Virus record (IMG/VR): IMGVR_UViG_3300036045_000015
Coordinates: 1 to 50,740 of that record
From: a virus
Lineage: Duplodnaviria > Caudoviricetes
DNA: 50,740 bases
Strand: one strand, 5' to 3'
The position numbers and the translations under genes were made by a program. The number at the start of each line of letters is the position of its first letter. The first letter of the stretch is position 1. Below are positions 1 through 17,565 of this stretch, in pieces. Below the pieces are notes generated by a model. That model ran no database searches. It was not told the DNA's origin and saw only the letters and a list, made by a program, of their open reading frames with translations.

Positions 1-106
1 CGAATACACCAACGAATACACCAACGAATACACCAACGAATACACCAACGAATACACCAACGAATACACCAACGAATACACCAACGAATACACCAACGAA
101 TACACC
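1..106 (+). repeat. 12-bp tandem repeat (ACGAATACACCA)n, about 9 copies, encoding (TNTP)n; continues the repeat at the right end
   Basis: Directly visible; same unit as 50602-50740. Confidence 0.97.
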
Positions 107-212
107 TGTAGCGCCACCAGCAGAAGCTACGCCAGAGGTGTCAGGGGCGTGGTTAGAGTGGCGCATTGAATTGAATATTGACCTAATTATTGAAAGGTGG
201 CAAAATGATTAA
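1..212 (+). CDS. C-terminal part of the beta-helix protein that starts at 48969 (wraps across the contig junction)
   Basis: Frame starting at base 3 reads (NTPT)n-NTPVAPPAEATPEVSGAWLEWRIELNIDLIIERWQND-TAA(210-212). The register matches the open frame at the right end, and the stop overlaps the next gene (ATG at 205). Confidence 0.85.
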   Translation, partial: NTPTNTPTNTPTNTPTNTPTNTPTNTPTNTPTNTPVAPPAEATPEVSGAWLEWRIELNIDLIIERWQND

Positions 213-1218
213 GTACCCAGCCGGAACAAAATCTCGAATTTCGTTCAATTTTTTACAAGATAACGATGTTGACATGGGGCAAATTTATCGCCGAATGGCA
301 AAAATTCGCCCGACTGTAGCAATGGCGGTGCAGCGTTTTGATATTTTGGAGACGGTGAAAGCGGCGTCGCCGGGCACTATTTGTATTTACCGTGAAGCGT
401 TAACCGAGCTTTTTGTTCAAAACGAAAAAAGGGTAATCGCGGATGAGCAGGTGCATTTGTTTGAAGCCCCAGAAAGGCATATTGAGCGCCGCGCCCCTCA
501 CGCTTTGCAACATGATTATGTGCTTCATGTGAGCAACGAAGCAGGTGATAGCGAATATTTTAGGGAATGGACACTTCGCGCAATTAAACGTGCTACTGCC
601 CTAGAGGTTCGTGGTTGTTTTTTGAATTCTGCGCCCGGCACCCCGCATCATGATTTGTGGGGGCAAGGTGCTTTCGATGAAATTTTGCTGGCGCTTGCTG
701 AGGGCGGGCACTATCTTGGATGGCACAGCTATAGTAATGGCAAAGATTTTGCGGATGATCCGTTGTGGTTGTTTACCCGCATGAATTTTGCCATTAAGCG
801 AATGGAGCAGTTGGGAGTGTTTGTCCCTATTGTTGTCACCGAGCTAAATTTTGCCGAGCTTGCGGGTAAAGGTTGGCACGGCTGGAAGCGTTCTGGCAAG
901 AGCGGGCAGTGGTTTGCTCAGCAGCTTATCAAGGCGGATACTGACCCGAATTTGTTTGGTTTTATGAAGTATCTGTTAGGGTTTTGCGTATTTGGTTATG
1001 GCGATAGTGGCGGTTGGGAACCATTTGACGTGCAAAATGACGAAGATGTGTTTACGCCGCTTTATCCGTATACGTCGCCAATTTTATTGGCGGATTTTGA
1101 ACCCGAACCCGAACCCGAACCCGAACCCGAACCCGAACCTCCTACAACCCGAATTTGGTTTTTTGAGATTTTCGGTTATCGTATTAGCGTTGAACGGTTG
1201 ACAAAAACTGCTACTTGA
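205..1218 (+). CDS. Putative clan GH-A-like TIM-barrel glycoside hydrolase with (EP)n linker; candidate cell-wall or sheath lytic enzyme
   Basis: HVSNEAG (acid/base NE), WHSY, IVVTELN (nucleophile E), GFCVFGYG...W motifs; ATG 205 after AAAGGTGG. Confidence 0.6.
   Translation: MIKYPAGTKSRISFNFLQDNDVDMGQIYRRMAKIRPTVAMAVQRFDILETVKAASPGTICIYREALTELFVQNEKRVIADEQVHLFEAPERHIERRAPHALQHDYVLHVSNEAGDSEYFREWTLRAIKRATALEVRGCFLNSAPGTPHHDLWGQGAFDEILLALAEGGHYLGWHSYSNGKDFADDPLWLFTRMNFAIKRMEQLGVFVPIVVTELNFAELAGKGWHGWKRSGKSGQWFAQQLIKADTDPNLFGFMKYLLGFCVFGYGDSGGWEPFDVQNDEDVFTPLYPYTSPILLADFEPEPEPEPEPEPEPPTTRIWFFEIFGYRISVERLTKTAT
1099..1140 (+). repeat. (GAACCC)x7 hexamer repeat (last copy GAACCT) encoding a Glu-Pro linker
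   Basis: Directly visible. Confidence 0.95.
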
Positions 1219-1243
1219 CAGATATTTCAAATATCGGTATGAT
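1215..1243 (+). promoter_or_regulatory. sigma70-type promoter TTGACA-17-TATGAT
   Basis: Near consensus; the -35 box contains the upstream TGA stop; the spacer holds the inverted repeat GATATTT-C-AAATATC. Confidence 0.85.
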
Positions 1244-1273
1244 TACCTCATTGAGCATAAAAGTGAGGTAATC

Positions 1274-1849
1274 ATGCTAACTAAGCCGCAAATCGAAATG
1301 TTGAAAACGGTTTTTGACCACCCCAGAAATCGTGTTAGAAGCAACCCTTATTCGTTGGATTTGTTATTTTCGAACACCCTTGATGCGCTGTTCCGCTATG
1401 GATATGTCGAAAAAAGAATGACGCCATCCGGTGTTATGTTAAATCTACGAGAAAACGTCTTTTTAACCGCTGCGGGCTATGAAGCAGCAGATAAAGCGGG
1501 GGTGTTTGACGAATTTTTAGAAACAATGGGGGGAAAGCGTAAAACCGCCCGGATTAAATGGTCAGAAATTGACCCACTTGGGAATTCAATGAATATAAAC
1601 TATGAGCCGCTTACGGTGTACCGCAAAGCGGGCGTGTTACCTGACGGTTTGCTTGTTGAAATTGCACATCAGCTGGATGTGCGTTATGAAATGGGGCTTG
1701 TTAATGAAGTTTTTGTTTTGCTTTCGGAGCCGATTAAGCAATACAGAACAAATTGGCATTCATCGTTTGCTTTTAGCCCAGAGTTAAATGAACCGCCACT
1801 TTACGTTGTACCGTCAATCTGGGTTCCACACAATATTTTGGGAGCGTAA
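1274..1849 (+). CDS. Hypothetical protein
   Basis: ORF with GAGG RBS downstream of a promoter. Confidence 0.75.
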   Translation: MLTKPQIEMLKTVFDHPRNRVRSNPYSLDLLFSNTLDALFRYGYVEKRMTPSGVMLNLRENVFLTAAGYEAADKAGVFDEFLETMGGKRKTARIKWSEIDPLGNSMNINYEPLTVYRKAGVLPDGLLVEIAHQLDVRYEMGLVNEVFVLLSEPIKQYRTNWHSSFAFSPELNEPPLYVVPSIWVPHNILGA

Positions 1850-1850
1850 A

Positions 1851-2156
1851 ATGCTGGGTTATGGTGGTGTTATAAGTGCGTTAGCATTATATACAGAAGA
1901 AACCGAACGTTGGGGCACCCCTATTTATTATGTTGTCGGGGTGGATTGCCGTAATATTGTAGTTGAAAAGAATGCCGTAGTTGTAGATATTGCTAACGGT
2001 CAACAACTGCCGTATGCGGTTGCTGAAAATAAAATTCGAACTTATCAGTTTAATTTCAAAAATACGAAAATTACGCTAATTCTCGTGGGCAACAGACTGC
2101 CCGAAAATGAGTTTGAAATCGAGCAAGATTTTCTGGATTATTGGTTTAGCGCTTGA
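1851..2156 (+). CDS. Hypothetical protein
   Basis: ATG 1851 after GGAG, abutting the previous stop. Confidence 0.7.
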   Translation: MLGYGGVISALALYTEETERWGTPIYYVVGVDCRNIVVEKNAVVVDIANGQQLPYAVAENKIRTYQFNFKNTKITLILVGNRLPENEFEIEQDFLDYWFSA

Positions 2157-2181
2157 CATATGTAAAAATATGTGATAAGAT
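2153..2181 (+). promoter_or_regulatory. sigma70-type promoter TTGACA-17-TAAGAT
   Basis: Near consensus; drives a unit with no credible ORF that ends at the 2329-2352 terminator. Confidence 0.8.
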
Positions 2182-2186
2182 TGAAA

Positions 2187-2352
2187 CAAGTAAAAGAAAC
2201 AAGACGGGTACAATCGCCCGACCATTACCATGAGATGTAATGTGAGTTGGAAAAGTGCTAAACGGTAGCGAAGCTGCGAAGCTACCGCCGTCTCTTCTTA
2301 TCGCTGAGCCAAGTGCAGGCGAGTTTTCGGGCACCTTCAAGGTGCCCTTTTT
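2187..2352 (+). ncRNA. Candidate structured small RNA of about 165 nt, family not recognised
   Basis: Bounded by a promoter and an intrinsic terminator; no SD-led ORF; several nested helices. Confidence 0.6.
2329..2352 (+). terminator. Intrinsic terminator GGGCACCTT-C-AAGGTGCCC followed by a T run
   Basis: 9-bp inverted repeat followed by a T run. Confidence 0.85.
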
Positions 2353-2397
2353 TGTATTTTTAAGTCTGCAATGTACAATTGTTAGGGAGTAATAATA

Positions 2398-3198
2398 GTG
2401 TATAGAAAAACTTTGCTGATTTTGACATTTTGTTTGGTACTTGTTTTTGTGCCCTTAAAAGTTTTGGCACAAAATGAAGTCGTGGTTCGTCATCATTGTT
2501 TTGACCGTCAATCGCAGACACACTATTTTCAAATTGAAAATTCTACTGATAGCGCCGTTGAATTTTTTGTATATGAGTGGGCACAAACTCCGCCCCGCCG
2601 TTATTTGGTTGCGGTAAAACTTGTGCCGCCACAAACGATTGATTATGTGCGCACACAGGGGGGCGGGCGCATAGATTTCGACACTGTTAATCGGCGTTAT
2701 GTTGTGTATGAAAATTTTCTTCCATCATGTTGGGCGGGTTTTCAACCTGTAGCGGTTTCAATACCGCAAGATACGGAGGACGAACCTATGTCATTTTCTT
2801 TTGCTGCGAGTGAGTGCTTACCCTTTATGCTGCCTGCGTTAGCGGGGTACACATATACAGTGATGTGGCGTACTCCGGTTGACGGGGGCGGTGCAGTTAT
2901 CGCGGCGTCGGGGGTTATCAGCAGTTACGGCGATGTTTCATTTGTGTTAGCGGCGGGGCGCTATCCTTCACAGCCAAATGCGCACGAGTTTACTGACATG
3001 CGGACAAATGAAGTTTTTGCCGCCTATAGCTACTATGATGTGTTTGTAGCAGATCAATTTGTAGCGACGGTTGTTCAACGTGCTTTGGGCGATTTTTCTA
3101 ATCCGCGTTGTTATCTGCTTGAAGGCGCGTATTCGCGTTTTGTTCAGCCTCGACAAACTTGGGAAACAACGCCAATTGCCCGTAAAAATGAGAACTAA
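2398..3198 (+). CDS. Secreted protein of unknown function (N-terminal signal peptide)
   Basis: MYRKTLLILTFCLVLVFVPLKVLA/Q signal-peptide pattern; GGGAG RBS; several Cys. Confidence 0.75.
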   Translation: MYRKTLLILTFCLVLVFVPLKVLAQNEVVVRHHCFDRQSQTHYFQIENSTDSAVEFFVYEWAQTPPRRYLVAVKLVPPQTIDYVRTQGGGRIDFDTVNRRYVVYENFLPSCWAGFQPVAVSIPQDTEDEPMSFSFAASECLPFMLPALAGYTYTVMWRTPVDGGGAVIAASGVISSYGDVSFVLAAGRYPSQPNAHEFTDMRTNEVFAAYSYYDVFVADQFVATVVQRALGDFSNPRCYLLEGAYSRFVQPRQTWETTPIARKNEN

Positions 3199-3202
3199 GG
3201 GC

Positions 3203-3262
3203 TTGACAGTCGAGCTAATTCGACGGATAATAGACGGACATTTAGTTCGTCTATTTTTTTTT
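3203..3262 (+). promoter_or_regulatory. Promoter TTGACA-17-GATAAT overlapping a terminator-like hairpin (3230-3254 plus T run)
   Basis: Motifs visible; stem ATAGACGGAC/GTTCGTCTAT. Confidence 0.6.
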
Positions 3263-3275
3263 GAAGGGAGGCGGC

Positions 3276-6200
3276 GTGGCATATCCACAATTTCCAATAC
3301 CAAAATATTTGCCTACCGCGCCGGGCAATTACCCCAAATACAGTTATGACGAACTTAACGCAATATTAATGGAACTTTCGGGGCTTGGTCTTCGAGTTCT
3401 GCCTAAAAAGCACGATAATAAGCTACCGCTTTGGCAGTTTTGGGATAAGGACGAAGCGCCCAAACAAGACTACAGCGCCACGTCGCTTATGCGTTACCAG
3501 CAGCGTTCTAACGTGTCGGGCTGGTGCGTTCAAACAGGCGAAATCAGTGGGCGGCTCATGGTTTTGGATTTTGACACTGAAGAAATTAAGCGGCACGGTA
3601 ATGACCCTTTACAGGTTTATGCTAACGTCCAAGAAATGTCCCCTACGTCTTTTGTGTTGGCTTCTCCGGCAAACGGGGTACATCTTTACTATCGTATTCC
3701 GGCTGAGTTCGGGGACATGCCCGGCAATGTCGCCCCTCCGGTTCGCGGTGTAGACACACGCGGCGAGGGGGGTCAAGTAGTGACATTGGGCGGATTTAAC
3801 CGATATGATGGCGGCGCTGCGTCTAAAAAAGGCGTTGTTGACGGGCATACTGCGACATACGAAAAACTAACTGATGGGCGGTACGAGGTAATACCGTTTA
3901 TGACCCGTGAGTTGTTTAATTGGGTGATGAGCGCTCATTTTAACCGCGCTGAAAAGCAGCGGAATGAGGCGGAAAACGCGGTTATATACAGTTCAAGCCC
4001 AGAAGCAGAAGCACGGTTAAGCATTCATCGTGCGCAGCCAAAAGAAAAACAAGTCGCTATTGTTATTGAGGCGTTGAACATCGTATTAAGCGCAATGACG
4101 CCTGAAACGCCCTATGAATATTGGTATAAAGTTTGGATGGCTGCTCATGAGGGCGCTCAAGGTGATCCTATTGTGCGCGATTATATACTTGGTCATCCTG
4201 TTCCTTATTGGCGCGACGGACATGAGGGTAAACGTCATTTTGTGCAGGCATGGAATAACCACAAGCAGCGCGATGGGGGCTATACCGCTGCCACTTTGTT
4301 TTATTTGGCGACTGAATATGGATGGATGCAGCAAACGGGCTACGAGATACCGGATGAATTATGCGAGTTGATTGATACCCCTCGTATTTCAGATTGGGCA
4401 GAAAAATTGGAAACTTTGCCTGAGCTAACTCTGCTAATGTCACAAACAGGGAGCGGAAAAACACAGAACCTAATTTGGATGTGGCATAAGCTCAGCCAAC
4501 CGAAAACGGTTGTGTTTGTGCCTTCAACAAAATTAGCAGCAGACTTAGTATTAACGCTTCGAAATGACGGGGTGCCAGCAGAGTTGTATATTGACCCTGC
4601 AACGGGTAAAACAAAAGCTCCTGAAGTCTTAAAAGCCGCCCATGTTTTGGTGACAACCTTGCAAACGTTTGGGAGAAAAGTTTGGGCGCGGGGGGCGAAT
4701 ATGGCGGATTACGGTTTAGTTTATATTGAGGAAAGCGACCAGCTAATACAACAGTTTGCGCGGGGCGGTAGCGGTATTTATTCCTCGCATGTGCGAGCGG
4801 ATGAGGCGAAATGGGGTTTTGAGGTTTTGCGGGCGGCACTCGAAAGTAGTGGCTACGTATGGGCGGTTGATGCGACCATGAGCAAAATCACGTTGACACT
4901 TTTTCAGGCAATGGCGCGAAGACCTGTTTCAGTAATTCGCAATACTCATGTGGCGTTAAAAGCGCCTGTAGCGATTTTAGCGTCTAAAGACGAAGCAATG
5001 ACAGTTATTCTATCGTCATTGCTACGCAACAAAAAAGTAGTTTTGGTCGCCGACACCGCTGCTGCCGCAAATGATACCGCCGAGATGATGCGCGGTTTGA
5101 TAGATAAGCGCATTATCAGTATTACAGCAGAGACCGAGCGGCAGCCGGAAGTTGTCCGTTTTATTTCCAACGCTAATGAAGAAGCAGCGAAGTACGATCT
5201 TGTTTGCTACAATTCGGTCATGGCGTCCGGTGTTAGTATCACTGCTGTTACGCCCGACGTTGTGGTGCAAATTGCTAACTATTTGCCGCCGCGTGTTAAC
5301 ATCCAGTTGTTAAATCGCTATCGTAAGCAAAAAGCGGTGTATGTTTACTATGGCAGCACAGACCGTATTTACTCTGAAGATGCTGGGGTGATTAAAAAAG
5401 CGGCGGAAAGACGATTGTCTTTAGAAGCGGCGCAGTTAGGTATTGAGGCAGCAGCGCGAACGCCTGATGCGCAGCTGCGGGCTGAGCTTACGGCGATGTC
5501 ACAAGCAGACGTACTTGCGCAGATGCGTTTTCCGGCGACATTTTATCGCGCGTTGCTTCGTCAGGACGGGCGTTATGTCCGCGATAGTGCTAAGCTTTTA
5601 GTCGCCCCCGCAATCGTGTTACGGGGAAAAGAAGTTCGCAAATTGCGGGCTGAACGAGTTGATTATATTCGGCGTAATTGGCGGTTAGTGCGTCCAGTTG
5701 ACAATGAAAATCCAGCAGACCCGGACATGACGCCGCTGCAAGTTGCTTTGGGGCAACGTCATGCGGAAATTGCCGTTGTCCTGAATGGGAATATTCCCAC
5801 AGATGTTGACGACGCAGAGATTGACCGAATTGTTAGCAGTTTTGAGCATAGGCTGTATGAGCTAGACATATTGACAGACGGTACCAATGTCGTTCAACGG
5901 GCGGAATGGCAAGTGCGAAGCGCTAATATGCCTGCGACGGATGTGAGAACACTGATCAGCCTTATGCGAGTGGTGTCAACTGTCAGCATAATGTTTGAGA
6001 GTTTCAACCAGCGTTTGTCTGCGTCATTAGTGGCTCAGCGTGTTCCCTTGTTTCTTGCAGAGATTGGCAAGGTTGTTAGTCAATTTGATGCGTTAGCAAT
6101 TCGAGATACGGATCGATATGAATACTTGAATAGTATTGCGGCGAGTAACAACGAACTTGCAGCGTTAGTTATGCGACGAATGTTGAAACTCGTGGGGCTG

Positions 6201-6473
6201 AAACTGAAAGTTGTTAACGACGGCACCGGAGCAGCAGAATGGTTTATTGCTAATGCTGAAGACGTGCAAAAGTTAATTCTTTGGAGGAATGGTAGCCTAA
6301 AGACACTTCAGTCGGCGTTAGCCGATGCTAGACGAAAAGTTGAACAGGTTCAGGAGCTTGCGGCACTTGTTCGGCGAATTGACCCCGTTGTGCTAAAAGA
6401 GTTGTATAATCGCGATCCGATGATGACAATTTCAACCGTTGTGGACATAGCATCCAGCAAAGAACATTTTTAG
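3276..6473 (+). CDS. Primase-polymerase (Prim-Pol) / PriCT-2 / SF2 helicase fusion replication protein
   Basis: MVLDFD, SPANGVHLYY and DTRGEGGQVV (AEP Prim-Pol); WYKVWMAAH (PriCT-2-like); SQTGSGKT (Walker A), IEESDQ (Walker B variant), DAT and QLLNRYR (helicase motifs); GTG 3276 after GGAGG. Confidence 0.85.
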   Translation: MAYPQFPIPKYLPTAPGNYPKYSYDELNAILMELSGLGLRVLPKKHDNKLPLWQFWDKDEAPKQDYSATSLMRYQQRSNVSGWCVQTGEISGRLMVLDFDTEEIKRHGNDPLQVYANVQEMSPTSFVLASPANGVHLYYRIPAEFGDMPGNVAPPVRGVDTRGEGGQVVTLGGFNRYDGGAASKKGVVDGHTATYEKLTDGRYEVIPFMTRELFNWVMSAHFNRAEKQRNEAENAVIYSSSPEAEARLSIHRAQPKEKQVAIVIEALNIVLSAMTPETPYEYWYKVWMAAHEGAQGDPIVRDYILGHPVPYWRDGHEGKRHFVQAWNNHKQRDGGYTAATLFYLATEYGWMQQTGYEIPDELCELIDTPRISDWAEKLETLPELTLLMSQTGSGKTQNLIWMWHKLSQPKTVVFVPSTKLAADLVLTLRNDGVPAELYIDPATGKTKAPEVLKAAHVLVTTLQTFGRKVWARGANMADYGLVYIEESDQLIQQFARGGSGIYSSHVRADEAKWGFEVLRAALESSGYVWAVDATMSKITLTLFQAMARRPVSVIRNTHVALKAPVAILASKDEAMTVILSSLLRNKKVVLVADTAAAANDTAEMMRGLIDKRIISITAETERQPEVVRFISNANEEAAKYDLVCYNSVMASGVSITAVTPDVVVQIANYLPPRVNIQLLNRYRKQKAVYVYYGSTDRIYSEDAGVIKKAAERRLSLEAAQLGIEAAARTPDAQLRAELTAMSQADVLAQMRFPATFYRALLRQDGRYVRDSAKLLVAPAIVLRGKEVRKLRAERVDYIRRNWRLVRPVDNENPADPDMTPLQVALGQRHAEIAVVLNGNIPTDVDDAEIDRIVSSFEHRLYELDILTDGTNVVQRAEWQVRSANMPATDVRTLISLMRVVSTVSIMFESFNQRLSASLVAQRVPLFLAEIGKVVSQFDALAIRDTDRYEYLNSIAASNNELAALVMRRMLKLVGLKLKVVNDGTGAAEWFIANAEDVQKLILWRNGSLKTLQSALADARRKVEQVQELAALVRRIDPVVLKELYNRDPMMTISTVVDIASSKEHF

Positions 6474-6475
6474 TA

Positions 6476-6505
6476 TTGACAAAACTCCTATTTTTTGGGT
6501 ATACT
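6476..6505 (+). promoter_or_regulatory. Promoter TTGACA-18-TATACT
   Basis: Near consensus, intergenic. Confidence 0.75.
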
Positions 6506-6538
6506 TTTAGTATATTCGTGAAATAGGAGTTAGCCCTC

Positions 6539-6940
6539 ATGCAAGAAATTCAAGATGTGTTAAAAAATCGTAGTGGCGTTATTCATGTGGATATGGCGCG
6601 GCGCGGTAATTTGAAAACTGTAATAAAAAATTCTAATCTTGCTAAAAAAGTGTTATACGATTTGCGTTTTGTCGGCGATCAGGTTTACAAAATTAACCCC
6701 CGCACGGGCGGAATGGAGTTATTGCCGACTTTTCAATATGGTGAAATTCGTAGAACTTTGGCGTTATTCGGGCACGGGGAGCTATTGACAGTAATTGCGC
6801 GGGGTAAACGGCTTTTGGGGAACAGTTTAACAAAAACTGAAGTTACGTGTATTGATGTTACTGTCTATGAAATTATTAAAGGCGAAGATGGTTTTGAAAT
6901 CGCGCGTACTATCAATACCGATATGGAGATGTCAAGATGA
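6539..6940 (+). CDS. Hypothetical protein
   Basis: AGGAG RBS, ORF. Confidence 0.75.
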   Translation: MQEIQDVLKNRSGVIHVDMARRGNLKTVIKNSNLAKKVLYDLRFVGDQVYKINPRTGGMELLPTFQYGEIRRTLALFGHGELLTVIARGKRLLGNSLTKTEVTCIDVTVYEIIKGEDGFEIARTINTDMEMSR

Positions 6941-7626
6941 CAACTTTTGATAATGAAAGTTTGGCGCAAAAAACGTGGGTGCCTGTTTTTTATTATTTAC
7001 GTGCTGATGAAAAAATAGACGAGTATTTTGGTCAAAAATATGCGCCGATTTTTTCATTATTCGCGCCAAATGACAAACTAAACGTTCAAGCCAAAGTCGA
7101 AGATACAGGTTTTACAAGGGCTGATCAACGAATTATCGTGTACGGAATTGTGAAAACTAGGTCGGCAGAAAACAACCCGCCCGTTATTGTCGAATTTGAA
7201 GCGAGCGGCATTCGACTAGCTACTATTGGTATGTGGTTTGCAGAAATTATATGCCGCGATAATCTTAAACTAAAAGATGTAAAAACGTTAGTAGACGTAA
7301 AAGCAATGCGCTTTATTGAAAGCACCCCTGAAATGTCGTTTGGGTTTATCGCGGCGTTTTCGAGCTTAACACGCGGGCTTGACGCTGTTAGGGCTATCAC
7401 AAAGTTTTTAGAGGTGTCGTTGCAAGCCGTTCATTTATTCGAACCGGTGCTGGAAGTTTTAGATGAGCGTTCTATGCCCTATGATCGTATTGCGGGCGAA
7501 ATTGCTTGGGGCTTATACTCTATGGTTGAAGAATTTGGCGCTGTAACTGCTTTTACAGGGGATGAATGGTTTACTTTCGAGTTTGCTGAACACAAAAGTG
7601 AGGATGCAGATTATGTACCGGACTAA
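6937..7626 (+). CDS. Hypothetical protein
   Basis: ATGA overlap, GGAG RBS. Confidence 0.75.
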   Translation: MTTFDNESLAQKTWVPVFYYLRADEKIDEYFGQKYAPIFSLFAPNDKLNVQAKVEDTGFTRADQRIIVYGIVKTRSAENNPPVIVEFEASGIRLATIGMWFAEIICRDNLKLKDVKTLVDVKAMRFIESTPEMSFGFIAAFSSLTRGLDAVRAITKFLEVSLQAVHLFEPVLEVLDERSMPYDRIAGEIAWGLYSMVEEFGAVTAFTGDEWFTFEFAEHKSEDADYVPD

Positions 7627-8146
7627 CGATAGCGGTTATCGGCGCACGTGGGGAACGGGGGCACAGCGTGATGTTGTCAAGGATAAGCCTGATTTTTTGA
7701 AATTTTTAGTCTTGCGAGCAATGATGTTAGAACAGGAGCGTTTGACAGGAATACCCTTTATTGTTGAAGCCGCAGGGGTGCCGTCTTTAACGCCAACTTT
7801 TGCACAATTGTACGATGATTATCGCCCTGATTTGTTGCCCGAAATCGCGCTTGAACGTTTGGCAATGCTGCTGGGGCGTGGCGCTAAAAAGTACGGAGAT
7901 CGAAATTGGGAATTGGGCATTCCTGTAGATGTGTTTGCTGCCTCTGCGTTGCGACACATGATGCAGTGGTTATTGGGAGATACTACTGAAGACCACGCCG
8001 CCGCTGTTCTTTTTAATATCGCAGCGGCTATGACCACTGAAGCGCGAGTTCAGGCGGGGGAACTGCCTTCAAGCCTTATTGGTTATTATGGTGTTTTGGG
8101 TAAACAAGTTGACTACGATAGTGATGATAGCTCTGTAAAGCCTTGA
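7613..8146 (+). CDS. DUF5664-like dATP/dGTP diphosphohydrolase domain protein
   Basis: TGAQRD...RPDLLP.IALERLA...GAKKYGDRNWELGIP...SALRH...EDHAAAVLFN pattern. Confidence 0.8.
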   Translation: MYRTNDSGYRRTWGTGAQRDVVKDKPDFLKFLVLRAMMLEQERLTGIPFIVEAAGVPSLTPTFAQLYDDYRPDLLPEIALERLAMLLGRGAKKYGDRNWELGIPVDVFAASALRHMMQWLLGDTTEDHAAAVLFNIAAAMTTEARVQAGELPSSLIGYYGVLGKQVDYDSDDSSVKP

Positions 8147-8172
8147 CAAAGTAATAATGTAACTTAAACTAT

Positions 8173-8197
8173 GGGGCGATAATTATCGCCCCTTTTT
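8173..8197 (+). terminator. Perfect 20-bp palindrome GGGGCGATAATTATCGCCCC plus T5 (terminator and/or operator just downstream of promoter 8143-8170)
   Basis: Directly visible. Confidence 0.65.
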
Positions 8198-8214
8198 GTG
8201 TTGCTGGGGGCGCT

Positions 8215-8421
8215 ATGGAAAATTACGACAAATCGTCTGATTTAGATTTATTGGCGGCAGCGCGTCAAGAATTATTGTTGGCGCATATTGTCCGTATGAT
8301 CAACCGAGTTTTGTTTTCGTATGGGGCAAAATCTCGTCCTACGGAAGCAGCGGTAGAAGCGCGAATAGAATTGGAGCGGCACTATGGTAAAGAAGCAGTC
8401 AGGGATTGGTTCGGGTATTAA
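8215..8421 (+). CDS. Small hypothetical protein
   Basis: ORF with G-rich RBS, overlapping the terS start. Confidence 0.55.
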   Translation: MENYDKSSDLDLLAAARQELLLAHIVRMINRVLFSYGAKSRPTEAAVEARIELERHYGKEAVRDWFGY

Positions 8422-8968
8422 GCCCAAAAATGTGTGGGATCGGCTTCCCGCCGAGAGCGATAAAGCTTTTCACGCTTTCAGCACTTATTTACAAATGCCC
8501 GTTGGCGCACGAAATAAGAGCGAAGTTGCTACTATGCTGGGCTACCAAAGTTTTTCATCGGTCATGCGTTGGTCGAGCGATTTTAATTGGGATGCGCGTG
8601 TCGGGGCGTATGATAGTCATATGCAGGCTCTTGCTCTTGAGACGCAAGCACAAAGCCGCACAGAAGCAGCCGAAAATGCTACTATGCAGCTGCTTATGGA
8701 GATTGATCAAGCCGCTAAATTAATGACCCGCGCCCATCGAATATTGCTTAACCGTATGGAAAACCCCGATGAATTTAAGATGCACGAATTAAAAACGTTT
8801 GTGGATAGTATGCGAAATCTTGACGATTTAAGGCGCAGAGCGTTGGGTATGCCTACGGTTTTTACCCGTCAAGTTGCCGATCAATTAGAGCCAGAAACGT
8901 TATTTGTAATCACCCAGCAAGGATCGCGCCCAGCCGGAGAGGTTGACGGTTATGGTGAAGACCAATAA
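8384..8968 (+). CDS. terS: Terminase small subunit (HTH-containing)
   Basis: WDRLPAES.KAF.AF..Y...W...W..R..AYD pattern; directly upstream of terL. Confidence 0.7.
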   Translation: MVKKQSGIGSGIKPKNVWDRLPAESDKAFHAFSTYLQMPVGARNKSEVATMLGYQSFSSVMRWSSDFNWDARVGAYDSHMQALALETQAQSRTEAAENATMQLLMEIDQAAKLMTRAHRILLNRMENPDEFKMHELKTFVDSMRNLDDLRRRALGMPTVFTRQVADQLEPETLFVITQQGSRPAGEVDGYGEDQ

Positions 8969-10433
8969 AAAAGAACGTCCGTCTACAATTCCAAAAATAG
9001 ATTTTTCTCAAATGCCGCTGTACCCGTTACAGCGCGATATAGCCGACGACCCCGCCCGCTTCAAAGTAGTTGCAATTGGGAGGCAGGCGGGCAAGTCATT
9101 TTTAGCAAAATGGCTGGCGTTGAAATATGCTGCTAACGAAGGGCTGAAAGTTTGGTGGGTCGCACCGACGTATGAAACCGCGCGATCTCATTGGCTGGAT
9201 TTGCGGCGGATGTTAGAAGGTTTTCCTGTACGCAGCATTAATGTTGCTAGTCGAGAAATCACTTTTTGGTCTGGTGGAACGATTACTATTAGGTCGGGGC
9301 ATGAGCCGGAAAATCTGCGTGGCGGATCGTTGGATTTTATCATTTTAGACGAAGCCGCGTTTATGGATAGTTCCGTTTGGCTGCAAGTCTTACAGCCAAC
9401 GTTGACTGCTACAAGGGGGCGCGCGCTTATAATTTCTACGCCAAGAGGACGTAATTGGTTCTGGAACGTGTACACAATGGGTGCAGGCAATCATCCATTC
9501 TATAAGAGTTGGACAGCGCCTACAACGGTGTCGCCGTATCAGTCGAAAGAAGATTTAGATGTTTTACGAAAATCTGTTCCTGAAGTTGTTTGGCGTGAAG
9601 AATACCTTGCCGAATTTTTATCGGATGGCGGCGGCGTATTCACAAACGTAGAACGGGCGCAAGTAACCGATTTTGAAGATCGGCGTAAAGACCCTCTTGA
9701 AACTCTGATTATGGGTGTAGATGTAGGGGCAACCGATAATTACACTGCAATCACGATTATTAGCGAGACACGCGGCGAGCAAATTGCAGGTTACAGATTT
9801 AGAGGGCTAAGCCCTGTTTTGCAGGTGCAAGCGCTGCTTGATATTGTTTCGAAATACAAACCTCAGCATGTGAACGTTGAAATTAATGGAATTGGGCTAC
9901 CGCTTTGGCAATTGATGTACTTGGCGATGTCACGGATGTCTCTCGATACTATTGCAACTGATGATCTACTCGCCAGCTATACCGACGCTGATCGTGCAAA
10001 ACTTCAAGAAATTACGGGGGGAATTCGTAGCAACGGCGGTGCTGTGCATGAGACGGTCAATCGTTTTTATCATAACGGAACTCGTTATGAGGGGGTGCGA
10101 ATTGATAACGCGCTCAAGCGAGTGTTAGTTGAACGAACATCGGTAGCTATTGAATTTGGGCGCTTAAAACTGCTAAAGGCGGATGCTACTGAATATGGTC
10201 GGGTACAAGCAAATGAAATATCTACATTTATTCGTAAGCGGACGTTATCGGGGCTTGAGGTCACTTACATGGCGCAAGATGGGTCAACGGATGATACAAT
10301 TTCTGCGCTGATGCAGGCTATGCACACTGTAAAACTTACGAAAGCCGGGTACTCCGGTGCTGCGCGGTTAACAAACGGGCGGCAAGGCGACAAAAAGCGT
10401 AATCCTTTTTCTAAAAATAGTCGAGTTAAATAG
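8952..10433 (+). CDS. terL: Terminase large subunit
   Basis: GRQAGKS (Walker A), LRGGSLDFIILDEAAF (Walker B), ISTPRG, GVDVG and DDTISA (nuclease motifs). Confidence 0.95.
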   Translation: MVKTNKKERPSTIPKIDFSQMPLYPLQRDIADDPARFKVVAIGRQAGKSFLAKWLALKYAANEGLKVWWVAPTYETARSHWLDLRRMLEGFPVRSINVASREITFWSGGTITIRSGHEPENLRGGSLDFIILDEAAFMDSSVWLQVLQPTLTATRGRALIISTPRGRNWFWNVYTMGAGNHPFYKSWTAPTTVSPYQSKEDLDVLRKSVPEVVWREEYLAEFLSDGGGVFTNVERAQVTDFEDRRKDPLETLIMGVDVGATDNYTAITIISETRGEQIAGYRFRGLSPVLQVQALLDIVSKYKPQHVNVEINGIGLPLWQLMYLAMSRMSLDTIATDDLLASYTDADRAKLQEITGGIRSNGGAVHETVNRFYHNGTRYEGVRIDNALKRVLVERTSVAIEFGRLKLLKADATEYGRVQANEISTFIRKRTLSGLEVTYMAQDGSTDDTISALMQAMHTVKLTKAGYSGAARLTNGRQGDKKRNPFSKNSRVK

Positions 10434-10442
10434 GAGATCAAC

Positions 10443-11954
10443 ATGCCAAGTGCTGTTAAATACTATCCTCCAAGTACGCCTGAACGTCAAAGACTTATGG
10501 TCGCCGCCTCTCAAGAGCGAGCGCAACGGGTAATGGACTATGAAAGAGCGTTACAATACTATTACGGTAATCACCCGCTGCCGATAACAGTCGAAGACAA
10601 TATGCCGGATGACAATGTAGTTATCAATATGGTGCGTATGGTCGGGGATCGGACTGCGCAGTTTTTGTTTCCAGAACCGCCTAAATTTGAGACAGACATT
10701 GACAGCTTAGAAGACACGGAAGAAGAAATTTGGCTAAGAGAGCTATTTGAAAAGTCTGGCGGTTTGGCGTTTTTCAACCGTTGGGCAGTTCGAGGTTATT
10801 TATCGGGGCATACATTTTTAAGAGTTATGCCGCCAAAGTTTCCCGGCGATCAACCGTTTTTGACGTTGTATGACCCGACCCAAGTTGTGCCCTATTGGGA
10901 TGCGGAAAACCCATCTATCGTATTGTGGTATGAATTGCGGTATGCAGTCGGCGAAGATTTTTACATGATTGATTTTTATCGCAAGGGGCTAAATAGCTGG
11001 GGCATTGATAAGTATATCAACCGTAATCGAGTAGATGGCGCGGGCGGCACATTCTATGAGCGCACCGTGCAGCAGCAGTCAATGCTTTTTCGAGCGTTGT
11101 GGTCTACGGATTTGGGTGCGGCGGGCTGGGAGTTGGTGCAGTTGGGCAATTGGGAAAGTAATTATCCCCCCATAATTGATGTGCCCCATCTCCCTGACCC
11201 CGATAAACCCTACGGTATGAGTGAAGTTGCTAATTTACGATTACAGGACACGATTAATCGCATATTCAGTTTGATGAACATGATTGTGCGTAAACATTCT
11301 ACACCTGTGGATGTTATTACGGGGGCAGATGTTGATGATGTAGATAACAGTACAGAAGATTTATTCGCTATTGCTTCGCCGGGCGCAAAAGTTACTCGTC
11401 TTGAGTTAAAGGGCGATCTTGCAGCAGTTGATCAAGCGCTAGAACGGGCTATTATCATGTATCTTGCCCTTGCCCGCGTAGTTTTGCTGCGCGGGGAAGT
11501 CGCAGATTTGCAGCGCGTTACAAATGCTTCAGTGAAGACCCTATTTTTAGATGCGCTTGCAAAGAACACACTTTTGTGGTCATCTTATAGCGCTGCCTTA
11601 AAAATAGCAGCAGCTACCGCGCTAGAGATTGGTTACGCAAATCGGCTAATTACAAATAATCCGGTAAACTTGGATATTCAAGTCGTGCGGGCAGAGCCGT
11701 TACCGACTGATATGCTGGAAGTCGCACAGATTAATGCAATGGGGATTACGGGCGGGTATATGTCTCGACAAGATGCTGCGACACGTTTGGGCTTAAATTG
11801 GGCGCGAACCTCGTCTGCGATAAAGGCAGAACATGATGTAATGATGGAACGTCAAGTCGCGGACGCCGCAATGATGCAAACTGTCAGCCCGAACCAATCG
11901 AATTCAGAGCAAAAAGAGCGTTCAAATGAGCAAAATGTTGACAATGAGAATTAG
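10443..11954 (+). CDS. Portal protein (SPP1-like)
   Basis: YYYGNH and PYGMSEV...LQD.IN patterns; size; position after terL. Confidence 0.85.
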   Translation: MPSAVKYYPPSTPERQRLMVAASQERAQRVMDYERALQYYYGNHPLPITVEDNMPDDNVVINMVRMVGDRTAQFLFPEPPKFETDIDSLEDTEEEIWLRELFEKSGGLAFFNRWAVRGYLSGHTFLRVMPPKFPGDQPFLTLYDPTQVVPYWDAENPSIVLWYELRYAVGEDFYMIDFYRKGLNSWGIDKYINRNRVDGAGGTFYERTVQQQSMLFRALWSTDLGAAGWELVQLGNWESNYPPIIDVPHLPDPDKPYGMSEVANLRLQDTINRIFSLMNMIVRKHSTPVDVITGADVDDVDNSTEDLFAIASPGAKVTRLELKGDLAAVDQALERAIIMYLALARVVLLRGEVADLQRVTNASVKTLFLDALAKNTLLWSSYSAALKIAAATALEIGYANRLITNNPVNLDIQVVRAEPLPTDMLEVAQINAMGITGGYMSRQDAATRLGLNWARTSSAIKAEHDVMMERQVADAAMMQTVSPNQSNSEQKERSNEQNVDNEN

Positions 11955-11965
11955 CAATCTATAAT
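11938..11965 (+). promoter_or_regulatory. Promoter TTGACA-16-TATAAT for scaffold/capsid
   Basis: Consensus hexamers. Confidence 0.8.
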
Positions 11966-11971
11966 GCTTAT

Positions 11972-12147
11972 TTGTGGGGTTGTCCTGAACTTTTGGGGTG
12001 CAGGCGGGTGCTGTGCGCCCCAATACTTAGGATTAACGCCGCTGCCAACTGTTAATAGATATAGTTGGCAATTCATTAATACTTATATTTAGGGGGCGGC
12101 GAGTGCCGCCCTCTTTGGTTCGGGCGAGTGCCCAAAAGGAACCCCAA
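11972..12147 (+). promoter_or_regulatory. Structured 5' leader of the scaffold gene
   Basis: Four hairpins, two with identical GGC-GAGT-GCC tops; an anti-SD pairing is possible. Confidence 0.6.
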
Positions 12148-12729
12148 ATGCGCTACAAATTAGTTGACGAACAAGGTGTAGAAGTTCCGGCTGAAAGTGT
12201 GACATCTGAACATTTACGAGAGTTCAAGCCGTACCAAGAGGTTCTTGAGGAAAGCATTGAACGTCGTAAAGTTATTGCATCGCTCAAGGCAACGCAGAAT
12301 AAGCCGGAAAAATCCGCGCCAGAAGATGCAGAGCAAGTTAATTCTGCTGTTCCCGTTTTGCCAAAAGTTGAAATGTCAAAAGTCGAGGCTCCGTCTTTTG
12401 ACCCCAGTGCGCTGGTCGCTCAGCTAGAACGCGACATTACTGCAAAAGTTACGGCGGCGCTGGCAGCAGCAAAACAAGCTGAACAGGAACAAGAGCAACA
12501 AATGAATGGGCTGTTACGCGAATTTAAGCTGCCCGCTATAGCGCGTGAAGCACTTGCCCCTGTAGCTGACCCGAATGTTCGTCGGCAAATTGCAGACGCG
12601 CTTAGCCGTTCTGGATTACGTCACGATTATGTTGACGAAGGCGGGCAAAAAGAACCGCCGCAAGCTGAATTTTTAGCGAGGCTAGATAAACGGCTTAATT
12701 TGTCAGACGATAATAAACCATTCGGTTGA
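12148..12729 (+). CDS. Capsid scaffolding protein (putative)
   Basis: Helical and charged, with an EESIERR motif; lies between portal and capsid; ATG 12148 after AAGGA. Confidence 0.7.
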   Translation: MRYKLVDEQGVEVPAESVTSEHLREFKPYQEVLEESIERRKVIASLKATQNKPEKSAPEDAEQVNSAVPVLPKVEMSKVEAPSFDPSALVAQLERDITAKVTAALAAAKQAEQEQEQQMNGLLREFKLPAIAREALAPVADPNVRRQIADALSRSGLRHDYVDEGGQKEPPQAEFLARLDKRLNLSDDNKPFG

Positions 12730-12777
12730 AAAATATCAAAAATTACATAAAAATAAATAAGTCAGTGAGGTTATTTT

Positions 12778-14028
12778 ATGGCTTACCCAAATGCAACTAA
12801 TCCGCAAAATTTGGCACAAATTTATGGGGGATTGAAAGATTTAATCCCGCATATGGAGGAACGCGCGTTTAAGTACGTTATGTACAGTCGCGTTTTGCCC
12901 GGACGTGTGACCCTCTATACTGATATGCCCGGCAGCTGGAATGTCCGCAAGTTTTCTGAATACGAACGTCCTCGCCGCGCTGTTTTGAAAAATGAAGGCG
13001 AGCGCGTTGAAGCGGCAAAAATGCGCCGTAAGCGAACAGTGCAAATTGAGCCGCAAGAATGGTCTGATGCTTATGAGATTACAGATCGTCGTTCGGGGAC
13101 GGATTTGGAAAATATTGCCGCCGATACGATTGAAGCATTGGGCGGTTCGTTAGGGCTTCGTCAAGAAAAATTGCTGTTCAAACAACTTCAGAGTAGCGCC
13201 TATGCAACGTTGGGCGATGGCACTGATCAATTTGCGTTGTATATGCAAATTGCGGGTCAGCAAGAGGCGGCAAAAAAAGGTTGGTCAGGTCAGTGGTTCA
13301 TGGCGCTGCATCCGTACCAGACTGTGGGCGTATTGACCGAATTGATTGATTTGACGAAAGCGGGTGTTCCTGCTTTCCGCAACGATTTTATCGCGCAATG
13401 GCGCATCGGCGGGTTTGGCAATCTTATTTTGATCGAGACGCCTTTATTGCCGCGCCACATTGTGTATAATTTGAACATCACAGCGGGGGCGGGTACGGGA
13501 GCGGATGGCGACACCTTCAAACTGTACTTGGGCACCAAAGATGATGGCACGGAAGCAATTACAGCGGAAATTACCGTTGATGCTACCGATGCCCCAGCAA
13601 TTGCGGATACAATTGATGCTATCGAAGCAGCATTAAACGCAGTGACCAATTTTCCTGATGGTTGGGTAGTTGGCGGTACTGCGTTAAATGCGCTTACTAT
13701 TACCCCGCCGTTGACATATTACGTAGATGCTGAGGATGAACTTCGTCTTGCTACTAATGAAGATGGAGACATTGACGGCACGATTAGCGCATCAAATATC
13801 ATTATCAGTGAAAATACTGCTACGGCTAAGGCGGTTATGTGGACACCTGAAACGGTTGCGCTTGATGTGCGCACTCCTATGACAATGGGCATGGAGATGT
13901 ATAACGAAGAAGGCTACATTCGTATGTTTGGAAAGCAAACGTATGGAGTTGAAGACCTTCGCGGTGATCGTCGTTTCCATGTTCATACGTTGGCTTATAG
14001 CCCGTTCAGCACAGCAGCACTCAGCTAA
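12778..14028 (+). CDS. Major capsid protein with an inserted decoration-like domain
   Basis: Position; LHPYQ, IGGFGNL.LIET and YGV..LR motifs typical of HK97-fold capsids. Confidence 0.85.
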   Translation: MAYPNATNPQNLAQIYGGLKDLIPHMEERAFKYVMYSRVLPGRVTLYTDMPGSWNVRKFSEYERPRRAVLKNEGERVEAAKMRRKRTVQIEPQEWSDAYEITDRRSGTDLENIAADTIEALGGSLGLRQEKLLFKQLQSSAYATLGDGTDQFALYMQIAGQQEAAKKGWSGQWFMALHPYQTVGVLTELIDLTKAGVPAFRNDFIAQWRIGGFGNLILIETPLLPRHIVYNLNITAGAGTGADGDTFKLYLGTKDDGTEAITAEITVDATDAPAIADTIDAIEAALNAVTNFPDGWVVGGTALNALTITPPLTYYVDAEDELRLATNEDGDIDGTISASNIIISENTATAKAVMWTPETVALDVRTPMTMGMEMYNEEGYIRMFGKQTYGVEDLRGDRRFHVHTLAYSPFSTAALS

Positions 14029-14047
14029 ATAATTAGGGGGGTAAATC

Positions 14048-14593
14048 ATGGCGCGAGCTACGATGTTAGGTTTAATTTCGGAACTGAGAATGTTGTCTAG
14101 TGCGGTAACAAACGATGTGTTTGACGGCGTGACTTACTGGACGGACGATCAACTCGAAGCCATTCTTGACCGAAATAGCGTCTATCACTTGCGCCACCCC
14201 CTAATAGTTCATCCGATTTATGAAGACGGGAGCATATCTTATCGTTATTGGCGGATAACCGACCATAATCGTAATCGTCGCGTTGAAGATGACCCCGAAA
14301 TTGTAAACTACTGGGGCGTGGTGCAGAACGAAGTAACCGTTGATGTGAATATGGGGATAGTGACATTTGATAACAGCCCATCGAAAAACGCAAAAATGTT
14401 CATCAATATGCGTGTTTTCTTTATGGCTGATGCGGTTGCAGAGGTGTGGGCGGCTAAGGCAGCGCAACGTGCGCCTTATGTAGATTTTCGCGCGGGGGTG
14501 CAGCGCGGTGCCATGCAGCAAGAGTATCAGCACTGCGTAGAGCAGCATAGATTGTGGCGGGCGCGGACAATGCGAGGTCATAAACGTCTATGA
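14048..14593 (+). CDS. Head-tail adaptor (putative)
   Basis: Position; WTDDQLE.ILD and AVAEVW..KAA patterns. Confidence 0.6.
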   Translation: MARATMLGLISELRMLSSAVTNDVFDGVTYWTDDQLEAILDRNSVYHLRHPLIVHPIYEDGSISYRYWRITDHNRNRRVEDDPEIVNYWGVVQNEVTVDVNMGIVTFDNSPSKNAKMFINMRVFFMADAVAEVWAAKAAQRAPYVDFRAGVQRGAMQQEYQHCVEQHRLWRARTMRGHKRL

Positions 14594-14994
14594 ATATTTC
14601 CGAACATGTTAATCGTTGGCGCACATTTACCAATACAAATTTATTGCCGTCTATTTGTAAAGTGCGCACTCCAAAACCAATAACTGAAGTTGACGAGATG
14701 GGCGTACCTGTTCGCGGTGACGTAGTTTACCGAACGTATGCCGATAGCGAAGATATACCTTGTCGAATTGACCCGTCTCGTGCTTTTCGACCTGAATACA
14801 CGCCGCTTCAAGCGATAGTCGCTGATGAATATGAGGTTCACTTTCCAGTTGGTTTTCTACCTCAACATGCTGATATTATTGAAACGGCAGATGGACGTTT
14901 GATGCGAATTCGTAAGATTACTGAAGCAGATACATTTGATGTAACAACGTATGTGTTAGCCTCGTATCTGTCTCTTACGGAGGTAAACGCATGA
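14590..14994 (+). CDS. Head closure / stopper protein (putative)
   Basis: Position, size, IPCRI motif. Confidence 0.6.
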   Translation: MNISEHVNRWRTFTNTNLLPSICKVRTPKPITEVDEMGVPVRGDVVYRTYADSEDIPCRIDPSRAFRPEYTPLQAIVADEYEVHFPVGFLPQHADIIETADGRLMRIRKITEADTFDVTTYVLASYLSLTEVNA

Positions 14995-15443
14995 GCTTAA
15001 ATATGCGGGTCAGGTTAGACCATAGCGGCACTATTCGAGCCGAGCGCAAAGCGTTACGTGTGGCAGATGCTACAACGCGGGAAATTGCGCAGTACATTGT
15101 CGAAGATATTCGCTCAAGCTGGTCGGCGCAAAGTCCGTCTAATGTTGGCAGCCCGCCCGCTGTAGACACCGGGAACTTAGATAGTTCGGTAAAGCTTGAA
15201 CGAACAGGACGCGATGAACGCGGGCGTTTTGCTAATGCTGCTAATACCGCTGTTCATTTTGTGCGTATTGACACTACACAAGGCAGCAATCCGGGCGGGC
15301 GAGGGCAATATGCTGCTGCTTTAGAAGACCCCGACTATTTTAACCGCCCGTATATGCGTCCAGCTGTCGAACGTGCGGCTGAGCATTTTGGCATAGCTTA
15401 TGCAGTTAATTGGGATAGCGCGGGGGGTGGTAACAATGGATAA
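14991..15443 (+). CDS. HK97 gp10-like neck protein
   Basis: PPAVDTGNL.SS, YAAALE and RPYMRPA motifs. Confidence 0.8.
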   Translation: MSLNMRVRLDHSGTIRAERKALRVADATTREIAQYIVEDIRSSWSAQSPSNVGSPPAVDTGNLDSSVKLERTGRDERGRFANAANTAVHFVRIDTTQGSNPGGRGQYAAALEDPDYFNRPYMRPAVERAAEHFGIAYAVNWDSAGGGNNG

Positions 15444-15861
15444 CAGCCCTAATCAACTTGCAGTCAAAGCGATTATACGCACACTCAAAGCAAGCGCCGC
15501 TGTGATTTCTGCGTTAACCGATGCGGGCATAACTCGAATATTTTTTGAGCGAGCGCCCCAAGAAATGCCTTATCCCTATGTCGTTATTCGACACATGAGC
15601 GGGGGATTGCGTAATCATACAAAACAGCAGTTTTTTGATGGGATTTACCGCATTACGAGTTGGTCAAACGAAACAGGAATTTATGCAGTATCGGCATTTG
15701 TTGAAACAGCGCTTATAGACAAACCACTAGTAGTGACTGACCTGCCTATTACAGGAATGGGTTTAATTCAACAAACATTGCCAATTAGTAACACCTACTC
15801 ACGTCAAAATGAAATTATTTACGAAGATGGGGCGGATTATCGTATTCGCTTCAGTCTATAA
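15436..15861 (+). CDS. Tail terminator / completion protein (DUF3168-like)
   Basis: RIF.ERAP...PYPYVV motif; position. Confidence 0.7.
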   Translation: MDNSPNQLAVKAIIRTLKASAAVISALTDAGITRIFFERAPQEMPYPYVVIRHMSGGLRNHTKQQFFDGIYRITSWSNETGIYAVSAFVETALIDKPLVVTDLPITGMGLIQQTLPISNTYSRQNEIIYEDGADYRIRFSL

Positions 15862-15873
15862 GGGAGAAGTAAT

Positions 15874-16668: not shown

Positions 16669-16720
16669 TAAGATCGTTGGCTTTATCATTAATTTTCAAT
16701 ACAAAAAAGGATAACCCACT

Positions 16721-17332: not shown

Positions 17333-17565
17333 AAAACCGTCTGTATTTGTCGGCTGTTTATCATAAGCCCCTCGACCCCGCAACCGTATGGAGAATTATT
17401 CGTGTACGACTGTGGGAAAAGGGGCACACTTTTGAAAAAATAGATGCAATGTCTCTAAATGATATTGGAGATATTTTAGCCTATTGGAACGAAGTGAGAA
17501 TGATCGAAAACAGTCGGCGAAGCGCTAAGGCGGGGCGCTCACAAAAAAGTAAAAGTAAAAAATAA
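17323..17565 (+). CDS. Tail assembly chaperone -1 frameshift extension (gpGT-like)
   Basis: Slippery heptamer A AAA AAC at 17323-17329; the -1 frame is open (KLENRLYLSAVYHKP...) to 17565 with no independent ATG/RBS. Confidence 0.8.
   Translation, partial: KKLENRLYLSAVYHKPLDPATVWRIIRVRLWEKGHTFEKIDAMSLNDIGDILAYWNEVRMIENSRRSAKAGRSQKSKSKK

Follow-up and report, generated by a model that had tools for sequence, protein, structure and literature searches.

A candidate promoter-to-terminator RNA unit upstream of the primase-helicase gene of an uncultured siphovirus

Near the start of an environmental phage genome, a promoter and a strong terminator enclose about 165 nt of sequence with no evident gene. 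Such a stretch could encode an RNA of its own, lead into the gene that follows, or simply close the operon that precedes it. We evaluated these readings in the complete IMG/VR virus record that holds the locus (50,740 bp, G+C 45.8%), which is the whole stretch of DNA analyzed and is referred to below as the window. The + strand holds almost all ORFs, and 90% of the genome is ORF-covered. It encodes the small and large terminase subunits (TerS and TerL), a portal protein, a tape measure protein, a family-A-type DNA polymerase, a helicase, a methyltransferase, and a 1070-aa Prim-Pol/helicase (3261-6473, + strand; hereafter primase-helicase). Because of this gene content, we classify the uncultured phage, at 50.7 kb, as a siphovirus type. 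The runs carrying its sequence are DNA only and come from sediment metagenomes, and four DNA runs from two studies showed no sequence variants across 1200-4200.

The recorded "direct terminal repeat" (1-111 and 50641-50740) consists of 100 nt in which a 12-nt unit, CGAATACACCAA, is repeated in tandem. This sequence encodes a (TNTP)n-type linker inside a beta-helix tail-protein ORF that is cut by the 3' end of the record and resumes at the 5' end. The record start is therefore arbitrary, and the number of repeats, hence the exact genome length, is probably uncertain.

Promoter, terminator, and coding potential

The unit begins with a sigma-70-type promoter at 2153-2181 on the + strand, consisting of TTGACA (2153-2158), a 17-nt spacer, and TAAGAT (2176-2181), for 10/12 matches. 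Its -35 box is perfect and overlaps the stop codon (2154-2156) of the upstream gene, its -10 box is imperfect, and an extended -10 TG is present at 2173-2174. Strong promoter sites (at least 10/12) number 28 on the + (gene) strand vs 10 on the - strand across the genome. A perfect TTGACA occurs in 21 of the 28, and 15/28 stand 25-60 nt before an ORF start, as measured to our own longest-ORF calls. Judged by these motifs, the phage clearly makes use of host sigma-70-type promoters, with the 2153 site a member of that class, and this promoter is the strongest part of the case for an RNA unit. The 2153 site is an outlier in distance, with 217 nt to the next ORF start.

An intrinsic terminator lies at 2329-2353 (+ strand), with an 8-bp stem (6 G-C), a 3-nt loop, and U6. 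The stem, GGGCACCT/AGGTGCCC at 2329-2347, is followed by TTTTTTGTATTTTT, and the terminator ranks first among terminator-like sites in 1-20000. Taking a start 7 nt past the -10 box and an end in the U tract, the predicted non-coding transcript spans 2188-2353 (+ strand, ~165 nt). A sequence-only reading of this DNA had proposed that a promoter and strong terminator bracket about 165 nt without a Shine-Dalgarno (SD)-led ORF, and both the coordinates and the motifs were confirmed. A discrete RNA of ~165 nt is probably made from the unit.

The position of the promoter relative to the terminator differs from that at three other sites in this genome. A design of terminator plus restart recurs at 3203-3255, 8143-8192, and 32564-32633, where a strong promoter overlaps or directly follows a strong terminator and the start site falls inside or after the hairpin, with the effect that upstream transcripts stop and a fresh transcript begins. 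The respective pairs are 3203-3231 over 3229-3255, 8143-8170 over 8173-8192, and 32604 just past 32564-32591; at 3203-3255 and 8143-8192 the -10 box abuts or overlaps the terminator stem. The 2153 promoter stands ~150 nt ahead of a strong terminator, so its transcripts appear built to meet that terminator, unlike those of promoters elsewhere that bypass terminators.

Coding potential within the unit is low. There is no SD-led ORF in the ~165 nt. A 45-aa GTG frame (2255-2392, + strand) runs through the terminator, and the remaining frames are one of 64 aa on the strand carrying no genes and a 12-aa ATG frame at 2230 that lacks an SD. The 45-aa frame, or a shorter peptide, could be the actual product. 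Consistent with a small protein gene, the frame stays open up to a stop 5 nt ahead of the gene that follows. However, its SD (GGA) is weak, its start codon is paired in helix P2 of the predicted fold, and it extends past a strong terminator, so its 3' end would be missing from most transcripts that start at 2153. We consider a small protein gene highly unlikely.

The terminator is also the first strong one downstream of the upstream genes (1274-2156). The last gene of that unit encodes a 101-aa ORFan (1851-2156, + strand, SD GGGAG), and the unit likewise ends at this terminator. The stretch might thus be the incidental 3' end of the upstream operon, merely a 3' UTR and terminator, with a weak or silent promoter and a fold typical of 140 nt at 50% G+C. 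The place of the terminator, the imperfect TAAGAT, and the lack of conservation reported below favor this explanation. The promoter argues against it, with its perfect -35 box, 17-nt spacer, extended -10 TG, and membership in a site class with a 28 vs 10 strand bias, as does the ORF-free spacer of ~170 nt, which is unusual at 90% ORF coverage. The predicted fold bears on both sides.

Predicted fold and searches for relatives

The minimum free energy (MFE) fold of 2188-2326 is the same as the centroid and contains all of the helices named in the sequence-only reading, which had described a three-way junction plus hairpins. The junction (2194-2299, + strand) is formed by three helices. P1 pairs AAGAA (2194-98) with TTCTT (2295-99) and AGACGG (2202-07) with CCGTCT (2288-93). 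P2 pairs GTAC (2208-11) with GTGC (2255-58) and is extended by CCGACCATTAC (2218-28) with GTAATG (2237-42) and GTTGG (2246-50). P3 pairs CGGTAGC (2263-69) with GCTACCG (2281-87) around an 11-nt loop holding tandem GCGAAGCT. A weak hairpin follows (2301-2322, + strand), and the U-rich linker GUUUUC (2323-2328) separates it from the terminator.

The energy of this fold is ordinary for this genome. With the terminator, which contributes ~-15 kcal/mol, the z-score was -2.97; without it the z-score was -2.07 and 6/200 shuffles were as good. The z-scores obtained for the opposite strand were almost as good (-2.53 and -1.51). The GC-corrected energy residual of the 133-nt body was -1.09 SD, ranking 1151 among 10122 genome windows. 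The ensemble, on the other hand, is unusually well defined. The MFE frequency was 0.17 (17% of the ensemble) and the ensemble diversity (mean base-pair distance) was 9.2, vs background medians of 0.9% and 29. That frequency was reached by 0/844 genome windows and that diversity by 1.9% of them, although the background windows have arbitrary ends, which favors the target. Among 200 shuffles, 0.5% (1/200) reached the MFE frequency and 1% the diversity. The energy rank and the z of -2.07 without the terminator are thus what an incidental 3' end predicts, while an ensemble far better defined than background speaks against it, and with the promoter evidence included we regard an incidental 3' end as unlikely.

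We found no alternative fold that would disarm the terminator. Among the 1973 suboptimal folds within 5 kcal/mol, none paired the terminator 5' arm upstream, and in the nascent RNA this arm is predicted to stay free until the 3' arm has been synthesized. A 10-nt long-range complement (2098-2107 / 2324-2333) is present, and we estimate that about one such pair is expected there by chance. The absence of an antiterminator fold, with no pairing found that would exclude the terminator, argues against a riboswitch or a classical attenuator, and Rfam gave no known aptamer class. A tRNA or tmRNA was rejected, with no cloverleaf or tRNA-like domain, 0 ARAGORN genes, and no Rfam hit to either at E<=10.

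Two adjacent copies of GCGAAGC occur at 2268-74 and 2276-82, which TRF reports as 2 copies of an 8-nt unit. The oligonucleotide d(GCGAAGC) forms a very stable DNA hairpin and is seen in some origins. The sequence-only reading had remarked on the tandem motif, but the window contains 8 copies vs 8.66 expected, and since it occurs at chance frequency the motif is irrelevant to function. The two copies, together with a location 900 bp upstream of the primase-helicase gene, are what would suggest a DNA-level element, either a replication origin or a protein-binding site near that gene, with the mini-hairpins acting in single-stranded DNA. Besides the chance-level motif count, positions 1200-3400 hold no iterons or repeat families and only chance-level pairs, much stronger hairpin or repeat regions exist at 29054-29147 and 46630-46885, and the promoter and terminator signals are strand-specific and account for the layout. 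A DNA-level element is therefore very improbable.

Both of the stronger regions are observations in their own right. At 29054-29147, a near-perfect, A+T-rich inverted repeat with arms of ~36 bp takes up the space separating two genes and runs right up to the -35 box of a promoter (29148-29176). It includes the most stable genome windows on both strands (residual -7.7 SD) and may serve as an origin, an operator, or a bidirectional terminator. The 1.4 kb at 45715-47132 have no ORF of at least 60 aa. They hold a ~35-bp inverted repeat (46630-46760), two copies of a 26-nt direct repeat (~46795 and ~46857), promoters at 46725 and 46918, and a terminator-like hairpin (45893-45925), and are a candidate regulatory or origin region.

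Searches for relatives of the RNA were negative. In the covariance-model check that had been suggested, Rfam (4227 families) over the whole window gave 0 matches at the gathering threshold, and ARAGORN found 0 genes; the sequence-only reading, too, had not recognized the RNA as a tRNA, SRP, 6S, or riboswitch. At E<=10, positions 2100-2420 produced 8 sub-threshold Rfam hits, with no riboswitch, tRNA, or tmRNA among them. The best-scoring three (MicA, isrD, and Atu_C8) rest mainly on the terminator hairpin, and they include weak sub-threshold matches of the 3' module, owed to the terminator hairpin and the U tail, to the Hfq-binding RNAs MicA (E 0.61) and isrD (E 0.16).

DNA similarity searches with a 901-nt query gave no match in phage records. 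A 211-nt query at E<=5 against 50,697 phage records and 72,556 plasmids returned only 29-44-nt pieces with E of at least 0.02, and an exact 23-mer scan of viral contigs gave 0 hits. Two window-derived gapped patterns, with stems free to vary, matched 3 + 3 viral loci and 7 genome loci. All 13 were rejected by a fold-based covariance model, R1, which scored the first three at 10.3 bits at best (E 0.32) and found nothing in the other ten. A 157-nt contig of X3 matching 2265-2301 with 6 differences and unlike flanks was taken as a chance match.

We also compared loci of relatives through the primase-helicase, which had 115 relatives at E <=1e-10, the best non-self at 44% identity. No relatives were obtained from viral contigs in a single-protein scan, nor from genome contigs. 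The 22 loci compared (6 viral + 16 metagenome) include several that are the same contig twice. No RNA counterpart was found in them by blastn, nhmmer, or R1. The four genes around the RNA had no relatives in the 22 loci, and of seven neighboring proteins only a 194-aa one was shared. In sum, no homologs were found in the phage, plasmid, viral, metagenome, or genome collections, and consequently neither conservation nor covariation stands behind the RNA. The missing homologs neither refute nor support it, and the RNA is plausible yet unproven.

Complementarity to potential targets within the phage was not elevated. When the RNA was paired with 58 phage translation-initiation regions in a crude full-length duplex fold, the best duplex reached -50.3 vs a shuffle mean of -50.0, with 27/60 shuffles as good. 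On the whole + strand, we found one 11-mer complement vs 2.2 expected.

Neighboring genes and the variable arm

Both immediate neighbors of the RNA are ORFans in a collection of 5.8 billion proteins. The upstream 101-aa protein matched only itself in that collection and had no Pfam, PHROG, or NCBIfam match. The downstream gene (2398-3198, + strand, SD AGGGAG) encodes a 266-aa protein with an N-terminal signal-peptide-like segment, which had no Pfam or PADLOC match. It has four weak relatives (E 1.8e-08 to 5.5e-06), with no Pfam match above the curated cut-off. Searches of the neighboring proteins against Pfam, PHROGs, PADLOC, NCBIfam, and the Atlas gave nothing. Past the 266-aa gene, a promoter (TTGACA-17-GATAAT, 3203-3231) and a terminator (3229-3255) overlap at 3203-3255 on the + strand; the terminator closes the unit of the 266-aa gene and the promoter restarts transcription for the primase-helicase. 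Beyond the primase-helicase, 7562-8146 encodes the 194-aa protein mentioned above, which is MazZ-like, with a hit to PF18909 (N-terminal domain of dATP/dGTP diphosphohydrolase, E 2.6e-16). No other left-arm protein is conserved in relatives, where this one occurs in 13/22 loci. Among the other of the 18 ORFs scanned against Pfam, no families were found, including adenylosuccinate-synthetase-like (PurZ-type) ones.

Between the terminator and position 2398, where the 266-aa gene starts, there is no promoter site scoring 9/12 or better, and for this reason the gene probably depends on terminator read-through. This qualifies the earlier description of the RNA as "stand-alone". That description is correct in that the unit has its own promoter. 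It fails in that the terminator is shared with the upstream genes (1274-2156), whose unit it ends, and in that the 266-aa gene has no promoter of its own, which makes the RNA the terminated leader of that gene as well.

The most direct rival is accordingly a pure cis-acting leader or attenuator, in which 2153 is the promoter of the 266-aa gene, a structured 210-nt leader sets the amount of read-through, and the terminated RNA is a by-product. Regulation could involve a protein antiterminator, a put-like effect of the RNA on polymerase, or translation of the 45-aa frame across the terminator. The lack of a promoter of at least 9/12 before 2398 fits such a leader, whereas 15/28 strong promoters stand 25-60 nt before ORFs. 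The 45-aa frame over the terminator fits as well, as it resembles the pyrBI leader and orf-64 of lambda. A second long structured leader in the same genome, after a perfect promoter at 11938-12102, also favors this reading. Against it, no antiterminator alternative appeared in the 1973 suboptimal folds and Rfam gave no riboswitch or leader match. The gene just upstream has no Pfam match, and hence belongs to no known antiterminator family. The 45-aa frame has a poor SD and a start inside P2, and we estimate that such an open frame arises about one time in three by chance. Finally, control would extend to a single gene, because the primase gene is served by a separate promoter. We regard a pure cis-acting leader as rather unlikely.

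The second leader is of interest independently of the RNA at 2188-2353. At 11938-12110, an ORF that starts at 12103 is preceded by a 139-nt leader without ORFs and, ahead of that, by a perfect promoter (TTGACA-16-TATAAT, 12/12). This leader folds at -66.7 kcal/mol (z -6.85, 0/200 shuffles as good), far better than the 2188-2353 RNA, and it is the better structured-RNA candidate of the two. It is possibly a regulatory leader of the head-gene block.

The arm upstream of the primase varies among relatives and seems to be a usual place for RNA genes in this phage group. One relative (L004) has three tRNA genes (Asp-GUC, Ser-UGA, and Trp-CCA) at 4248-4754, 1.2 kb upstream of the primase-helicase. 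The closest relative (L008; also L013) has, at 2159-2239 and 2302-2376, an 81-nt "tmRNA" consisting of the tRNA-like domain only, beside a tRNA-Thr(UGU). The tmRNA-like gene matches the Rfam tmRNA model at both ends (50.1 bits; gathering score, 47) and lacks ~290 nt in between, and ARAGORN did not call it. Elsewhere in L008, on the minus strand at 1847-1715, a promoter-like TTGACC-18-TATCAT and a terminator-like hairpin bracket ~95 nt; they lie within 440 nt that lack ORFs and come after a + strand promoter (1492-1520). In a third locus (L015, 3801-4058; also L006 and L002), ~220 nt located 1 kb upstream of the primase are flanked by a promoter (TTGCCA-17-TATACT with TG) and, at 4024-4049, a terminator-like hairpin. 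By eye, this unit may hold a 40-aa Cys-rich frame from 3846, and it has no similarity to the window RNA.

Our best overall reading, held tentatively, is a discrete non-coding RNA with a layout like that of lambda 6S RNA, where read-through feeds the downstream ORFan. Host RNA polymerase would start from the promoter at 2153-2181 and most transcripts would end at the constitutive terminator at 2329-2353, yielding the ~165-nt RNA. The RNA would have a short single-stranded, A-rich 5' end, a rigid three-way-junction body, and a 3' end of the Hfq-type small RNA kind, made up of a hairpin, a U-rich linker, the terminator hairpin, and a U tail. We infer that it is transcribed, that it is stable, and that it acts in trans; as the intended product of the unit, it would most likely act on gene expression in the host or the phage. 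Low-level mRNA for the secreted-looking 266-aa ORFan would come from the smaller share of polymerases that read through the terminator. That the RNA has a function of its own is a possibility we take seriously without counting on it.

A further alternative retains the discrete RNA and changes its partner. It could be the first representative seen of a new class of phage RNAs that have a rigid three-way junction and bind a protein instead of base pairing. The partner would be a host defense factor, an RNA-processing factor, or polymerase itself, and the RNA would be made early, from a host-type promoter, in a hypervariable arm where relatives carry tRNA or tmRNA-like genes. We consider a new class quite improbable.

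Comparison with known systems

phi29 pRNA. The packaging RNA of phi29 is ~170 nt, contains a three-way junction, and is transcribed from an early promoter. The RNA described here is likewise a phage RNA of similar length built on a three-way junction. It differs in having no Rfam match, and its phage is a siphovirus with TerS, TerL, portal, and tape measure instead of a phi29-like podovirus. The roles put forward in the sequence-only reading (decoy, anti-defense, or packaging RNA) are unsupported.

Type III toxin-antitoxin systems. In these systems the terminator sets the ratio of RNA to mRNA (PMC3401426). The order of promoter, non-coding RNA, terminator, and promoterless protein gene is shared with ToxIN, CptIN, and TenpIN. 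The antitoxin RNA of those systems is a tandem array with repeats of ~34-45 nt, vs 2 x 8 nt here (TRF). The 266-aa protein looks secreted and has no Pfam or PADLOC match, hence none to a ToxN-, CptN-, or TenpN-like or other defense family. There was also no match to the corresponding Rfam families at E up to 10.

Terminator-ended small RNAs. The likeness to this group includes a promoter inside or at the end of the upstream gene, a terminator shared with that gene, and the absence of an ORF. MicL and DapZ are 3'UTR-type sRNAs with their own promoter. Ishikawa et al. (2012) reportedly defined the Hfq-binding module as U-rich sequence preceding the hairpin of the terminator plus a U tail behind it. 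By that definition, the Hfq-type arrangement is present here as GUUUUC (2323-2328), the hairpin (2329-2347), and U6. Two differences stand against this likeness: a 165-nt RNA with a large closed three-way junction leaves little single-stranded seed, and target complementarity within the phage did not exceed that of shuffles. Terminator-ended bacterial and phage small RNAs are covered in one review (PMC12197685).

Lambda 6S RNA. One study describes this RNA as ~194 nt, Hfq-bound with targets, and spanned at its terminator by an ORF, and also names the phage small RNAs PreS and VpdS (10.1101/2024.10.31.621285). We compared lambda by layout, with distant blastn against the 50,697 phage records giving only short chance hits. 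The two units (in lambda, the pR'-tR' leader of the late operon) share a strong constitutive promoter, a non-coding RNA of 165-194 nt, a strong intrinsic terminator, and a position upstream of same-strand genes, and each has an ORF that begins within the RNA and continues past the terminator. They differ in that the gene immediately upstream here has no detectable Q-type antiterminator family (Pfam, PHROG, NCBIfam) and in that only one gene precedes the next terminator and promoter pair, with no long read-through-dependent operon. Because no Q-type gene is detectable adjacent to it, the unit is not a member of the lambda system.

The RNA is best filed as an unverified member of the phage-encoded terminator-ended small RNAs or terminated leaders. 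Its value is that of a well-delimited candidate, a single orphan sequence and not demonstrably a new kind of element. Work on phage small RNAs has so far concerned almost entirely lambdoid, Vibrio, and Pseudomonas phages. Should the RNA prove real and functional, an environmental siphovirus would be added to the few phages with known small RNAs of their own, and the lambda 6S layout, in which the RNA product is also the terminated leader, would extend outside the lambdoid phages.
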